Shown: piece after piece, positions 10,609 through 21,740 of the stretch
How positions within the stretch are numbered: position 1 is the stretch's first letter
Layout of the letters: each line of letters starts with the position of its first letter
DNA from: Patescibacteria group bacterium
Lineage (GTDB): Bacteria > Patescibacteriota > Minisyncoccia > Moranbacterales > JAKLHP01
Assembly: GCA_022710085.1 (NCBI GenBank)
Contig: JAKLHP010000001.1
Span: forward strand, 1 to 31,647
Reading direction: 5' to 3'
DNA: 31,647 nt
Program-made: the position numbers and the translations under genes
Notes under the pieces: model-generated
Databases searched by the model: none
Seen by the model: only the letters and a program-made list of their open reading frames with translations
What the model was told of the DNA's origin: nothing

Positions 10609-11304
10609 TTATATCCAATTCTTTTTCTTTAATCCGTTTTTAGCCGCTTCTCTCTGAGCTTCTTGCTTGGAATTGCCTTCTCCTTTAGCTATCAGATTAT
10701 CACCCAAATAAACCCCAACTGCAAAATGCTTATCGTGGTCTGGACCAGATTCCTCCAAAACCCTGTAGCTGGGAGTTATTTTGACCACATCCTGAGCTCT
10801 TTCCTGAAAAAAACTTTTGGGATCCATATAGAGCTTATTTTTTAGAACATCGTCCAGGTTAAAAATAACGTTTTTAAAAATAAATTTTTCCGATGTTTCA
10901 TATCCTTTATCAAGATAGATTGCTCCGATAATAGCTTCCATGGCATTGGCCAAAAGATATTGTCTAGCCCTTCCTGTATCCTTGGCCTCTCCCTTGCTCA
11001 TTAAAAGATACTCTTCTACTCCTAATGTCTTGGCAATTTGCGCCAAGTTTTCCCCATTTACCAAGGCTGCCCTCCAACTCGTAAGCTCTCCTTCGGGATT
11101 TGTATAGTTTTTATACAAATATTCAGTAACTACCAATTCCAAAACTGCGTCACCAAGAAATTCTAATCTTTCATTGTGATCCAATTTATACTCCCTGTGT
11201 TCATTGAGATATGAGCGGTGAGTAAGTGCCTGTTGAAGTAATTTGATGTCTTTGAACTGTATGCCAATTTTTTTGGCAAAAGAATCAATCATATGAATCT
11301 CCAA
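10609..11304 (-). CDS. rnc: Ribonuclease III (start TTG 11304 or ATG 11292)
   Basis: ALTHRSY, NERLEFLGDAVLEL, EAIIGAIYLD, and a dsRBD (GPDHDKHF...GEGNSKQEAQREAA). Confidence 0.97.
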   Translation of the reverse strand: MEIHMIDSFAKKIGIQFKDIKLLQQALTHRSYLNEHREYKLDHNERLEFLGDAVLELVVTEYLYKNYTNPEGELTSWRAALVNGENLAQIAKTLGVEEYLLMSKGEAKDTGRARQYLLANAMEAIIGAIYLDKGYETSEKFIFKNVIFNLDDVLKNKLYMDPKSFFQERAQDVVKITPSYRVLEESGPDHDKHFAVGVYLGDNLIAKGEGNSKQEAQREAAKNGLKKKNWI

Positions 11305-11358
11305 TTTACAATTTTCAATTTACAATTAATCTTCTAATAAATTGAAAATTGTAAACTT
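11302..11358. repeat. Inverted tandem heptamer arrays
   Basis: CAATTTA CAATTTT CAATTTA CAATTAA ... TAAATTG AAAATTG; perfect 18-bp inverted repeat 11305-11322 / 11338-11355. Confidence 0.85.
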
Positions 11359-11383
11359 CCGCTTAAATATTATTAATGCCTGT

Positions 11384-11854
11384 TTATTTTTCCTCTTTTT
11401 TCTTTTTCTTGTCACTGTTATCATCCTTCATTGGTTCCCCCATTTCCCGATAAATTGTTCCGAGGACTCCGTTAACGAATCTGGCCGAACTTTCTCCTCC
11501 GAAAGTCTTGGCAAGTTCGATAGCTTCATTAATTGCTACTTTAGGAGGAACTTCTTCATACTTTCCATAGATAAGTTCATAAATTCCAAGTCTTAATATA
11601 TTTCTATCTACAGCTGTAATTTGATTAATTGGCCACTCAGGGGCGCATTTTTCAATCAACTCGTCTATATTTTTCCTATTCTTCAATGTCCCTTCCACTA
11701 AAGATTCAATGAAGTCAGTTTCTTCTATTCCTGGCGCAAACTCCCTCGTGTTCCTGTTGGTGATTTCTTCTGTCTTTTCGTCCCGGCAACCTTGAAAATC
11801 CCACTCAAAAAGCGACTGCATTGCTACTGAACGTTGTAAATGTCTGTTCGCCAT
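11384..11854 (-). CDS. nusB: Transcription antitermination factor NusB (likely start MANRH at 11854; ORF track extends to 11875)
   Basis: [59 protein letters not shown]. Confidence 0.95.
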
Positions 11855-11905
11855 GGAATATAAGACATAAAACATAAAAATAAAATGTTATATGTTCTAT
11901 GTTAT
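11855..11905. repeat. Inverted tandem heptamer arrays
   Basis: AAGACAT AAAACAT ... ATGTTAT ATGTTCT ATGTTAT between nusB start and rpmF stop. Confidence 0.7.
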
Positions 11906-11915
11906 GCGTAAAAAA

Positions 11916-12119
11916 TTATTTCTTTTTCTTTTTTTCAGTTTTTTTCAAGGTGTTGATAATTTCTTTCCCTTTATAATATCCGCAATTTTTGCAAATCTGA
12001 TGAGGAAGTTTTGAGCTTCCGCATTTGGGACATACCTGGGTTTTTTTATGAGTAATTGCAAATCTTTTTCTTTTTTTATCCCTTCTTCCTTTTGTACTTC
12101 TTTGTCTCTGAACTGACAT
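11916..12119 (-). CDS. rpmF: 50S ribosomal protein L32 (Zn-ribbon form)
   Basis: CPKCG...PHQICKNCGYYKG. Confidence 0.95.
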   Translation of the reverse strand: MSVQRQRSTKGRRDKKRKRFAITHKKTQVCPKCGSSKLPHQICKNCGYYKGKEIINTLKKTEKKKKK

Positions 12120-12126
12120 AACGAGT

Positions 12127-12184
12127 GACTAACGGACTAACGCATTAACGCATTGAAAATTTGTTAACTCTTTAATTCGTTAAT
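12127..12184. repeat. Inverted tandem octamer arrays
   Basis: GACTAACG GACTAACG CATTAACG ... TTGTTAAC TCTTTAAT TCGTTAAT next to the rpmF start. Confidence 0.7.
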
Positions 12185-12222
12185 TATACAATTTTATTAA
12201 TTCACACAAACTTAACTTATCA

Positions 12223-12900
12223 CTATTTCCCTGTTTTGACAAGGATTTTGACCGGCTCGAAGCTTTTTCGGTGAATTTCGCAAGGTCCGTATTTCTTTAG
12301 CATTTCCATATGAAAATAGGTACCGTACCCCTTATGTTTATCGAATCCGAACTTAGAATAAGTATTATGTGCCTCTTTCATAATCCTATCCCTTGTTACT
12401 TTAGCAATAATTGAAGCGGCGGATATTGATTTTACTATTTTATCTCCGCTCACGATTGCTCTTTGCTCCATTGAGAAGTTTGGAATTTTTTTATTTCCAT
12501 CCAGCAATACCATCATTTTTTGTTTTGAATTACATTTTCTAAGCCTCTCGTTTCGAAATAAATCTGCGACTGCTTTTTTCATTGCCAAAAAACTAGCTTC
12601 TAGGATATTTATCTTATCGATTGTTTTGTGATCACAAATTCCAACCCCCACAAAAAATTTTTCCTGGATAAAATCAAATAATTTTTCTCTTTGCTTTTCG
12701 GAAAGTGTCTTTGAATCCCTGATTAAATCAAGTTCCCTAATTTCATATTTCACAGCTCTTAATTCGGAATTCTTTAAAATAACAGCACCGGCCACAACTG
12801 GTCCGGCCAATGGTCCCCGACCAGCTTCATCGATACCGATGACTAGTTCATAACCATTTTCGATTAAATCATTTTCCAATTTGAATGTTGACTTTTCCAT
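12223..12900 (-). CDS. rnhB: Ribonuclease HII (likely start MEKST at 12900; ORF track extends to 12978)
   Basis: GIDEAGRGPLAGPVVAGAVIL, DSKTLSEKQRE, GDKIVKSISAASIIAKVTRD, HKGYGT, HRKSF. Confidence 0.95.
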   Translation of the reverse strand: MEKSTFKLENDLIENGYELVIGIDEAGRGPLAGPVVAGAVILKNSELRAVKYEIRELDLIRDSKTLSEKQREKLFDFIQEKFFVGVGICDHKTIDKINILEASFLAMKKAVADLFRNERLRKCNSKQKMMVLLDGNKKIPNFSMEQRAIVSGDKIVKSISAASIIAKVTRDRIMKEAHNTYSKFGFDKHKGYGTYFHMEMLKKYGPCEIHRKSFEPVKILVKTGK

Positions 12901-20453: not shown

Positions 20454-21740
20454 ATGAAATATTACATCAAAACATTCGGCTGTCAAATGAATCACTCTGA
20501 TTCCGAACGAATTGCGGGTTTTTTGGAAGCGCAAAAAATTAATCCGGCTAAAGACATAAAATCAGCGGATCTGGTAGTTTTCAATACCTGCGGAGTGCGA
20601 CAAATGGCGGAAGACCGGGTTTATGGACAAATACATAATTTGAGAGTCAAAAGTCAAAAGTCAAAAGTCAAAATTGTCCTAACTGGGTGTTTGGCACATC
20701 GAAAAGACGTGCAAAGAAGGCTTAAAAATAAAGTTGATTTGTTTGCTGACATAAAATATTTCCAGAAAGAAATTAAGAAAATTCTAGATACCAAGAACCA
20801 GACTACAAACAATGAACTTGATTATTTTTCAATCAAACCAAAATACAATAGCAAATATACTGCACTTATTCCCGTCATGACCGGCTGCAACAACTTCTGT
20901 TCCTATTGCGTTGTTCCTTATGCCCGAGGAAAAGAAGTTTCTCGCCCCGAAGAAGATATAATAAAAGAAATAAAAAAATTGATTAAGACGGGTTATAAAG
21001 AAATAATTTTATTGGGCCAAAATGTCAATTCATATCAAGGAGCAAAAGGAAATAATTTTTCCCAGCTTCTTAAAAAAATCAACAATATTCCCGGTAATTT
21101 TTGGATCAGCTTTGTTAGCAACCATCCAAAAGATTTTTCCGATGAGCTCATTAAAACTGCCACAAAATTGAAAAAAGTCTGCGAATATATCCATCTTCCT
21201 ATCCAGGCCGGAAACGATAAAATTCTGGAAAAAATGAACCGAAAATACACGCAAAAGCAATATCTGAAATTGGTAGAAAAAATTAGAAAATCATTCGAAA
21301 AAAATAAACCAAGAAGTTTGTATTCCCTTACCTCCGATATAATCGTCGGATTTCCCGGAGAAACCAGGAAACAATTTGAAGAATCCGCCAAAATAATGAT
21401 GAAAGAAAAATATGATATGGTCTATTTCGGTCAATTTTCTCCTCGCCCGGAAACCGCTGCCTGGAAAATGAAAGGCAACATAAGCAGAGAAGAAAAGTCC
21501 AGAAGAGAACAATTTCTTAATGAAATCCTTAAAAAAACATCTTTTGAAAATAATAAAAAATATTTAAATAAAACTTTGGAAGTTTTTGTTGAAAAAGAAA
21601 AAAGAGGATTTTATTTCGGAAGAACCCGAACGATGAAAAACGTGAAAATAATTTCAAATAAGAAAAATCTGATTGGAAAAATCGTAAAAGCAAACATCAA
21701 TAAAATAAATATATGGAATCTAGAAGCAGAAATAAAATAA
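20454..21740 (+). CDS. miaB: tRNA-2-methylthio-N6-dimethylallyladenosine synthase
   Basis: TFGCQMNHSDSE, NTCGVRQMAE, CNNFCSYCVVPYARG radical-SAM motif, DIIVGFPGET, C-terminal TRAM domain; adjacent to miaA. Confidence 0.93.
   Translation: MKYYIKTFGCQMNHSDSERIAGFLEAQKINPAKDIKSADLVVFNTCGVRQMAEDRVYGQIHNLRVKSQKSKVKIVLTGCLAHRKDVQRRLKNKVDLFADIKYFQKEIKKILDTKNQTTNNELDYFSIKPKYNSKYTALIPVMTGCNNFCSYCVVPYARGKEVSRPEEDIIKEIKKLIKTGYKEIILLGQNVNSYQGAKGNNFSQLLKKINNIPGNFWISFVSNHPKDFSDELIKTATKLKKVCEYIHLPIQAGNDKILEKMNRKYTQKQYLKLVEKIRKSFEKNKPRSLYSLTSDIIVGFPGETRKQFEESAKIMMKEKYDMVYFGQFSPRPETAAWKMKGNISREEKSRREQFLNEILKKTSFENNKKYLNKTLEVFVEKEKRGFYFGRTRTMKNVKIISNKKNLIGKIVKANINKINIWNLEAEIK
20645..20672 (+). repeat. Perfect heptamer tandem repeat inside miaB
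   Basis: AGTCAAA x4, encoding VKSQKSKVK. Confidence 0.9.

Follow-up and report, generated by a model that had tools for sequence, protein, structure and literature searches.

The REP/BIME elements of enterobacteria and the Rickettsia palindromic elements (RPEs) are small co-transcribed hairpins at operon junctions, the RPEs lying even in coding regions, and their presence varies. The copies of REP and of RPE share a consensus that is recognised in trans, for REP by REP-associated tyrosine transposases (RAYTs). The leader of Escherichia coli rnc is said to contain a stem-loop for autoregulation by RNase III, and the heptanucleotide repeats called STRR reportedly occur in cyanobacteria. The 23S rRNA intervening sequence (IVS) of Coxiella is 428 nt long, with an S23p open reading frame (ORF) and a 28-bp terminal stem that is cut mid-stem by RNase III (PMC4990558). 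The Avd accessory proteins of diversity-generating retroelements (DGRs) resemble the four-helix-bundle family PF05635, the family of the 23S rRNA IVS proteins (IVPs) (PMC10053308). Intergenic heptanucleotide repeats have been described with the word GGGAATC in Xanthomonas and Nostoc (PMC4692102) and with the word TAACTGA in Beggiatoaceae (PMC4679880), and the latter paper cites Mrazek 2007 for long simple sequence repeats (SSRs). Although intergenic heptamer repeats have been known for decades in cyanobacteria, Xanthomonas and Beggiatoaceae, no origin or role has been generally accepted. Here we describe three inverted tandem arrays at consecutive junctions of the rnhB-rpmF-nusB-rnc gene block of a Patescibacteria group bacterium of the order Moranbacterales (assembly GCA_022710085.1). 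The window, i.e. the whole stretch of DNA analyzed, is contig JAKLHP010000001.1, positions 1 to 31,647 (31,647 nt), referred to as contig C1 of genome G000. These arrays probably belong, as cargo-less ('solo') members, to a set of intergenic palindromes that is found throughout the order and has arms of 7-9-nt units, and they are probably transcribed and cut by RNase III.

Inverted arrays at three gene junctions

The genes rnhB, rpmF, nusB and rnc lie in this order on the minus strand, separated by gaps of 103, 61 and 91 nt. Pfam gave RNase HII, L32, NusB and RNase III with a domain that binds double-stranded RNA (dsRBD), which bore out the gene names of the original prediction for this DNA, made by reading the sequence. 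Tandem arrays were called with Tandem Repeats Finder (TRF), and the three sites were folded as minus-strand transcripts with 200 shuffles each. The features are as follows.

12223-12900, minus strand: rnhB (RNase HII; Pfam), stop codon at 12223-12225
12120-12222, minus strand: site 3, the rnhB-rpmF junction, 103 nt between the rnhB stop and the rpmF ATG
12158-12185, minus strand: site 3, opposing octamer array AATTTGTT AACTCTTT AATTCGTT AATT (TRF period 8, AATTCGTT x3.5)
12127-12154, minus strand: site 3, octamer array GACTAACG GACTAACG CATTAACG CATT (TRF period 8, GACTAACG/TAACGCAT x3.0-3.1)
11916-12119, minus strand: rpmF (L32; Pfam), ATG at 12119, stop codon at 11916-11918
11855-11915, minus strand: site 2, the rpmF-nusB junction, 61 nt between the rpmF stop and the nusB ATG
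11885-11905, minus strand: site 2, array ATGTTAT x3.0 (TRF), the 5' arm of the transcript
11860-11885, minus strand: site 2, array ATAAAAC/AAGACAT x3.9 (TRF), the 3' arm of the transcript, AUGUUUUAUGUCUUAU
11384-11854, minus strand: nusB (Pfam), ATG at 11854, stop codon at 11384-11386
11293-11383, minus strand: site 1, the nusB-rnc junction, 91 nt, an arms-only palindrome
11337-11357, minus strand: site 1, nusB-proximal 5' arm of the transcript, the 18-nt repeat being extended to 21 bp in the fold
11324-11336, minus strand: site 1, loop of 13 nt in the fold, with no ORF and no cargo
11303-11323, minus strand: site 1, rnc-proximal 3' arm of the transcript, (TAAATTG)(AAAATTG)(TAAATTG), half of the 21-bp stem
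11302-11327: site 1, rnc-proximal array CAATTTA x3.7 (TRF period 7)
10609-11292, minus strand: rnc (RNase III catalytic domain and dsRBD; PF14622/PF00636/PF00035), directly downstream of site 1

TRF identified 7-mers at the rnc-nusB and nusB-rpmF junctions and 8-mers at the rpmF-rnhB junction, so the inverted tandem arrays that had been predicted at all three junctions were present, and the perfect 18-bp inverted repeat claimed for site 1 was found at 11305-11322 / 11338-11355. As RNA, site 1 gave a 21-bp stem of -22 kcal/mol (z -4.65), and 0 of the 200 shuffles folded as well; in an inverted-repeat scan it was the second strongest hairpin of G000. Its array continued in phase into TTGGAGA, which contains the Shine-Dalgarno-like motif GGAG. 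Site 2 held a 15-nt inverted pair that was 87% complementary and formed a 12-bp stem (11865-11876 / 11891-11902) of -11.5 kcal/mol (z -2.87; 1 of 200 shuffles as good), while the arrays of site 3 formed a 19-nt pair that was 79% complementary. A stem of at least about 20 bp, as in an IVS-type cassette, was found at site 1 only. No PF05635 ORF was found between the arms in the window, where the loops were 13-15 nt. At the rate seen in shuffled intergenic DNA, about 0.05 period-7/8 arrays would be expected by chance in these 255 nt.

Array frequency was analyzed across G000 (760 kb, 99 contigs, 37.6% GC), whose genes were called crudely as longest non-overlapping ORFs. The intergenic set given to TRF was 93 kb of padded DNA, and the null was 30 dinucleotide shuffles of that DNA. 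The intergenic DNA contained 49 period-7 arrays in comparison with 8.2 +- 2.8 in the shuffles, far above the shuffle level that the original prediction had named as the outcome that would speak against it. Arrays of period 8 (34 vs 9.6), period 9 (27 vs 8.3) and period 14 (14 vs 2.2) were also in excess, and periods 10-12 were at background level. The 5-mer self-match exceeded that of shuffles 2.14-fold at lag 7, 1.77-fold at lag 14 and 1.49-fold at lag 21. The words of the more than 100 arrays in G000 were mostly different, and only the word family of site 1 recurred, at about 8 loci. Because 15-18% of the G000 spacers of at least 30 nt contained an array of this kind, three occupied junctions in a row were unremarkable. 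An ungapped inverted-repeat scan of 462 G000 spacers showed strong inverted repeats in 117 of them, in comparison with 14.8 in shuffles (8-fold), and most of these strong hairpins were ordinary terminators with an A-tract, a GC-stem and a T-tract. The cleanest heptamer array of the window lay elsewhere, at 20645-20673, where a perfect AGTCAAA x4.1 (TRF score 58) was found inside an ORF.

Cassettes and their alleles in relatives

A tie between heptamer arms and PF05635 genes, which the original prediction had put forward, proved to be real in this lineage, congeners included. PF05635 was present in 113 of the 151 genomes of the order that were surveyed, with up to 19 copies per genome, 3-6 in each congener (G001, G002 and G003) and 6 in a genome of the same family (G004); a profile search of G000, which is 94% complete, found no intact gene. 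Twenty-seven copies were inspected and 26 had enough flank to be scored for strong arms (inverted-repeat score of at least 10). In 19 of the 26 scored cassettes, an ORF of 115-131 codons was bracketed by inverted arms of up to 51 nt. The arms consisted of 7-, 8- or 9-nt units with a different word per locus, such as AGTTTGT/ACAAACT, ATTTGAG/CTCAACT, AAAGTCCTT/CTTTATAGA and TTAACGAG/CGTTAAC, and the whole cassette, of about 420-480 nt, was located between protein genes of operons. In this lineage, whose genomes are tiny and have almost no DNA to spare, arrays of the same kind as the intergenic heptamer repeats are the arms of an IVS-like gene-carrying cassette. In the literature searched, no paper was found to connect PF05635 genes with tandem heptamer arms.

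A striking load for a reduced genome was observed in G078, with four PF05635 matches within 10 kb (contig C2, 936-946 kb) and 19 in the genome of about 1.3 Mb. That each arm word belongs to one IVP subfamily found no support, as the same subfamily occurred with different words (loci L033, L042 and L051). A link to reverse transcriptase of the Avd/DGR type was rejected, since G000, G003 and G004 had no RVT_1 match despite 6 PF05635 copies each in G003 and G004. Contig ends were examined as a refuge of lost cassettes, and an array lay within 200 nt at 21 of 198 ends, in comparison with about 19 expected.

The cassette flanks of the congeners were mapped onto G000 for allele comparison. Orthologous junctions varied in presence or absence and in cargo; invariant junctions were the second outcome that the original prediction had named as adverse. 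Between atpD and atpC, the junction was empty in G000 and G004 (gaps of 12 and 18 nt, respectively), G001 had a 123-nt solo hairpin built of site-1-type words, and G002 and G003 had a cassette of 416-418 nt. A PF05635 match in the distant relative G012 also lay, by its coordinates, directly upstream of atpC, which made three cassette-filled genomes in all. In 28 relatives, about 13 of the atpD-atpC junctions were tight and about 10 contained solo heptamer-armed hairpins. At contig C9 (8954-8968), G000 had 15 nt where G001 has a cassette. At contig C40 (660-809), G000 had a 150-nt arms-only palindrome, and its 3' arm aligned with an arm of the G003 cassette at that junction. There, G003 had arms of the same word with a 119-aa IVP, and G002 had 9-mer arms with a 115-aa IVP that gave no BLASTP match to the IVP of G003.

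A decayed copy was found in G000 on contig C72 (3439-3546), downstream of smc. It matched the middle of a G003 IVP ORF at 49 of 67 nt and the 3' arm of the G003 cassette at 32 of 38 nt, and the remainder was deleted; cargo loss by internal deletion therefore happens in G000. At this relic locus (L071, C72 3414-3576) the ORF fragment of about 67 nt and the 3' arm survive, and the contig ends about 30 nt later. One genus thus displays the empty, arms-only, filled and decayed states together.

In the comparisons of filled and empty alleles, the arms merged with the ends of the host genes and no clear target-site duplication was visible. The last atpD codons of G002 and G003 (L073, L074) were synonymously recoded in comparison with those of G001 and G004 (Ser AGC/AGT to TCA, plus one Gln codon), and the recoded end was 7-periodic and paired with the 3' arm of the cassette. 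The ancestral atpD end, GATATTAGTGAAATC, resembled the arm word TCAGTGA, and the G001 arm word ATTTGAG was matched, in the empty allele, by the end of the host gene itself. At L055 of G001, the 3' arm array CTCAACT x4.7 was in frame with the next gene, which is dTDP-glucose dehydratase-like with a GGAGFIG motif. This arm would add MENPQLSTLNSQLS to the N-terminus, while the G000 orthologue starts directly at MKLLITGGAGFIG. These 2-3 cases are hints that arm words may be seeded from the target, which would explain the same layout with different words. Between orthologues the arrays differed by whole units, in concert, and they also occurred in frame inside ORFs. The arrays also matter for annotation: in relatives they extend into the regions of starts and stops, where gene ends are recoded and N-termini lengthened.

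The window sites were also compared with the cassettes. As generic word sharing proves nothing, only specific long matches were relied on. The site 3 arm GTTAACTCTTTAATTCGTTAAT shared 20 of 22 positions with a 3' arm in G004, that of a PF05635 cassette located elsewhere (L056), a match of 28.2 bits in comparison with at most 20.3 bits for reversed-sequence controls, and both elements had period 8 and the same polarity (a TAACG array, then a CGTTA array). The site 1 arm was matched at 26 of 26 positions on G000 contig C7 (11891-11916). Its core word ATTGAAAATTG occurred 12 times in G000, in comparison with once reversed, and 13 times vs twice in the loci of relatives, among them the arms of one cassette. 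The site 2 12-mer ATGTTCTATGTT recurred once, in the rnhB-rpmF gap of a relative (L024). BLAST of the three junctions against G000 gave arm-word matches for site 1 only, none for sites 2 and 3, and no near-identical whole copies.

The rnhB-rpmF-nusB-rnc genes formed one co-oriented block that was conserved across the order in the 89 relatives of the junction survey. In the first 29 relatives, the gaps ranged from 11 to 181 nt at nusB-rnc, from -11 to 206 nt at rpmF-nusB and from 44 to 842 nt at rnhB-rpmF. Within the genus, the nusB-rnc gap was 91 nt in G000, 14 nt in G001, 11 nt in G003 and 181 nt in G002. Inverted-repeat scores of at least 12 were distributed as follows, with gaps of at least 30 nt as the denominator at nusB-rnc (n = 84).

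nusB-rnc: 52 of 84 relatives, 41 with long periodic arms
rpmF-nusB: 8 of 61 relatives, 3 with long periodic arms
rnhB-rpmF: 12 of 53 relatives, 4 with long periodic arms

At nusB-rnc the mean best inverted-repeat score was 13.0 in comparison with 7.9 in shuffles, the hairpin-bearing relatives spanned 12 families, and the foot of the stem was mostly 8-11 nt upstream of the rnc ATG. Five tight nusB-rnc junctions, two congeners among them, had no hairpin. The words at this junction (AAATCC.../...TTTGGAT and others) varied by genome, and the arms remained complementary. Upstream of rpmF, most relatives had some T-rich array of period 7, 8 or 9. In G002 (L005), the octamer array orthologous to site 3 was AATCCGTT x3.4 in comparison with AATGCGTT/CGTTAGTC in G000, the units having changed in concert.

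Other genes and elements were observed at two of these junctions. Long rnhB-rpmF gaps of relatives contained other genes, namely a membrane protein and a RAYT-like ORF. In the 842-nt gap of G030 (L019), a 187-aa ORF had the motif ...IMPNHVHAII..., which is typical of IS200-like/REP-associated tyrosine transposases, and had GTAGAGACGCA(A)TGCATTGCGTCTCTAC palindromes on its flanks, so that the mobile element at this rnhB-rpmF junction is of another kind. The rpmF-nusB gaps of 160-206 nt (L002, L004, L007 and L011) contained GGCTCCCAGCACCAATT ... AATTGGTGCGGGATGCTCATTGTTGC, an element of about 150 nt that was conserved, folded strongly and ended at the nusB ATG.

Proposed life cycle and rival explanations

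Because the genes are co-oriented and no terminator-like site lies between them, the elements are probably transcribed by read-through. A search of the whole window with Rfam at gathering thresholds gave three tRNAs only and nothing at the junctions, and the elements were not in 23S rRNA. The layout of the window sites is one that, in relatives, encloses a PF05635 gene of about 115-130 codons and so makes an IVS-layout cassette outside rRNA. Cassettes and solo hairpins come and go at orthologous junctions, and G000 has only solo forms and one decayed relic. The arrays may have arisen by slippage and template switching, and the arm words likely change by replication slippage together with either templated correction between the arms or selection for pairing. 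In the RNA, an A-U stem of 21 bp would form at site 1 and a stem of 12 bp at site 2. If the analogy with intervening-sequence stems holds, RNase III would cut these stems and so separate the cistrons, and through the rnc-proximal hairpin, which most relatives retain, the enzyme may exert feedback on its own mRNA. This makes a testable life-cycle model, in which a selfish palindrome would undergo RNase III processing and decay to solo hairpins.

A more far-reaching form of this model appears doubtful. In that form, IVS-type selfish cassettes would have left rRNA and colonised operon junctions throughout the order in dependence on RNase III, the arms would have been built from the host flank by 7-9-nt-periodic copying, and the hairpin before rnc would have been domesticated as a feedback sensor. 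Arms copied on the spot from the host flank would explain the site-specific words. If true, this reading by colonised junctions and flank copying would also explain the intergenic heptamer repeats of other phyla.

A tentative alternative, which overlaps with the explanation by solo palindromes, is that site 1 serves above all as a cis-regulatory hairpin, selected in the rnc leader, which RNase III would cleave and thereby regulate its own production as in the E. coli rnc operon, and which is made of the same repeat material. The perfect stem of 21 bp lies beside the GGAG motif and leaves 10 nt to the rnc ATG, rnc is intact with its dsRBD, and 52 of 84 relatives, from 12 families, have a strong hairpin there, in comparison with 13-23% at the two neighbouring junctions. 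However, the atpD-atpC junction, which is unrelated to RNase III, is occupied in about 10 of 28 relatives, no sense-strand G-U bias was seen, and the relatives at nusB-rnc are kin and non-independent samples. The hairpin is also dispensable, since G001 and G003, both congeners, do without it, their nusB-rnc gaps being only 11-14 nt long.

This dispensability is one of several results that weigh against the reading of the three arrays as solo palindromes of cassette kin. Folding of site 3 was no better than that of shuffles (z +0.44). Only 16 of the 117 strong hairpins of G000 overlapped period 7-9 arrays, and most arrays had no inverted partner. Collectively, the cassette arms matched G000 no more than reversed arms did. 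In none of the 89 relatives was a PF05635 match, and hence a filled allele, seen at any of the three junctions. Polarity was also discordant: solo hairpins were mostly C-rich in the 5' arm (37 vs 11 at nusB-rnc, about 7 vs 1 at atpD-atpC), cassettes were mostly G-rich in the 5' arm (12 vs about 3), and sites 1 and 2 had the solo polarity (5' arm C-rich, 3' arm G-rich), opposite to that of most cassettes. A palindrome has the same polarity on either strand, so that plain deletion of the cargo from a cassette of the common type could account for site 3 but not for sites 1 and 2. No preference for the sense strand was found, either in the minimum free energy of sense minus antisense folds of 63 junctions (mean -0.45 kcal/mol, p = 0.47) or in the mismatches of 52 nusB-rnc hairpins (81 of G.T type vs 67 of A.C type, p = 0.29). 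Pairing is thus kept symmetrically, which is compatible with templated correction at the DNA level or with selection on near-perfect stems. The suggestion of the original prediction that the sites are footprints, that is empty sites, therefore stands in part: the allele variation, the relic and the arm match of site 3 agree with it, but no filled allele is known at these junctions among the 89 relatives and the polarity of sites 1 and 2 is the opposite one.

The absence of strand asymmetry, the equality of real and reversed arms and the different polarity of solo and cassette forms also favour an origin as neutral simple-sequence DNA. In such an origin, 7-nt-biased slippage would fill tolerated spacers, template switching would produce the inverted pairs, and PF05635 genes would have arrays at their flanks simply because all spacers of these genomes have them. 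Array density was alike in divergent (0.96/kb), convergent (1.49/kb) and co-directional (1.4-1.8/kb) spacers, and arrays were found inside ORFs too (0.33/kb in coding DNA, e.g. AGTCAAA x4.1). Only slightly more arrays were nearer to a start than to a stop (44 vs 31), but the association with start codons is unconvincing because the ORF starts are over-extended. In addition, PMC4679880, summarising Mrazek et al., describes heptanucleotides as the commonest class of long SSRs and 7 nt as a possible polymerase contact length. Slippage of a purely neutral kind is a serious rival as the origin of sites 1 and 2. As an account of the whole system neutrality is nevertheless unlikely, given matched inverted arrays of up to 51 nt around one gene family, whole cassettes of about 420 nt that occur in some genomes where others have a tight junction of 12-18 nt, orthologous arms with and without cargo, a cassette relic in G000, and specific long matches between loci (26/26 and 20/22).

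It is improbable that a protein or the ribosome binds to the arrays and that they thereby serve as operators or translational enhancers, as has been proposed for the TAACTGA repeats of Beggiatoaceae (PMC4679880). In agreement with such a role, the arrays stop short of the ATG by 10 nt at rnc, 6 nt at nusB and 8 nt at rpmF, no obvious Shine-Dalgarno sequence precedes rpmF or nusB, and a T-rich array just upstream of rpmF is usual in relatives. However, the words differ at every site, and between congeners at one site, so that there is no shared word; arrays are equally found after stops and in convergent spacers, and junctions can be empty in close relatives. That the hairpins are intrinsic terminators or attenuators between genes is very improbable, since, although spacer hairpins are 8-fold enriched and most are terminator-like, a promoter/terminator consensus scan showed no excess and no terminator-like site in the three junctions, the site 1 stem has a GC content of 11% and no distinct U-run, and the genes form one conserved co-oriented block in the 89 relatives.

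Comparison with known systems

The gene carried by the relatives' cassettes is from the same four-helix-bundle family as the Avd proteins, but no reverse transcriptase lies nearby, and G000, G003 and G004 gave no RVT_1 match. The elements resemble REP/BIME and RPE in being small, hairpin-forming, located at operon junctions and probably transcribed together with the adjacent genes, with a presence that varies between relatives. In contrast to REP/BIME and RPE, their arms have a common layout and not a common sequence. The E. coli rnc leader shares with site 1 a long double-stranded stem directly upstream of rnc. However, the stem described here is inside an operon, after nusB, is made of tandem heptamers and is missing in two congeners, and its cleavage by RNase III is inferred.

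The known intergenic heptanucleotide repeats, STRR included, share with the arrays of G000 the 7-nt units, about 3-5 copies, an excess in non-coding DNA, positions near starts and stops, a variable copy number and an unassigned function. They differ in having one genome-wide word each, whereas the words described here are site-specific and periods of 8 and 9 occur also. Moreover, the arrays of this lineage are AT-rich and have no G-quadruplex potential; they are often paired with an array of the reverse-complementary sequence, and in relatives such pairs flank a gene.

Unlike the 23S rRNA IVS with an S23p/IVP ORF, as found in Coxiella burnetii and Leptospira (PMC4990558), the cassettes of the relatives are located between protein genes of operons, have arms of tandem 7-9-nt units with site-specific words and reach up to 19 copies per genome of approximately 1 Mb, and the window elements contain no ORF in their loops of 13-15 nt. 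The relatives' cassettes nevertheless share with these IVSs a terminal-repeat stem, a PF05635 ORF in the loop and a length of about 430-480 nt. Like the IVSs, they are sporadic and selfish-looking, and their stem would be of the kind that RNase III cuts.

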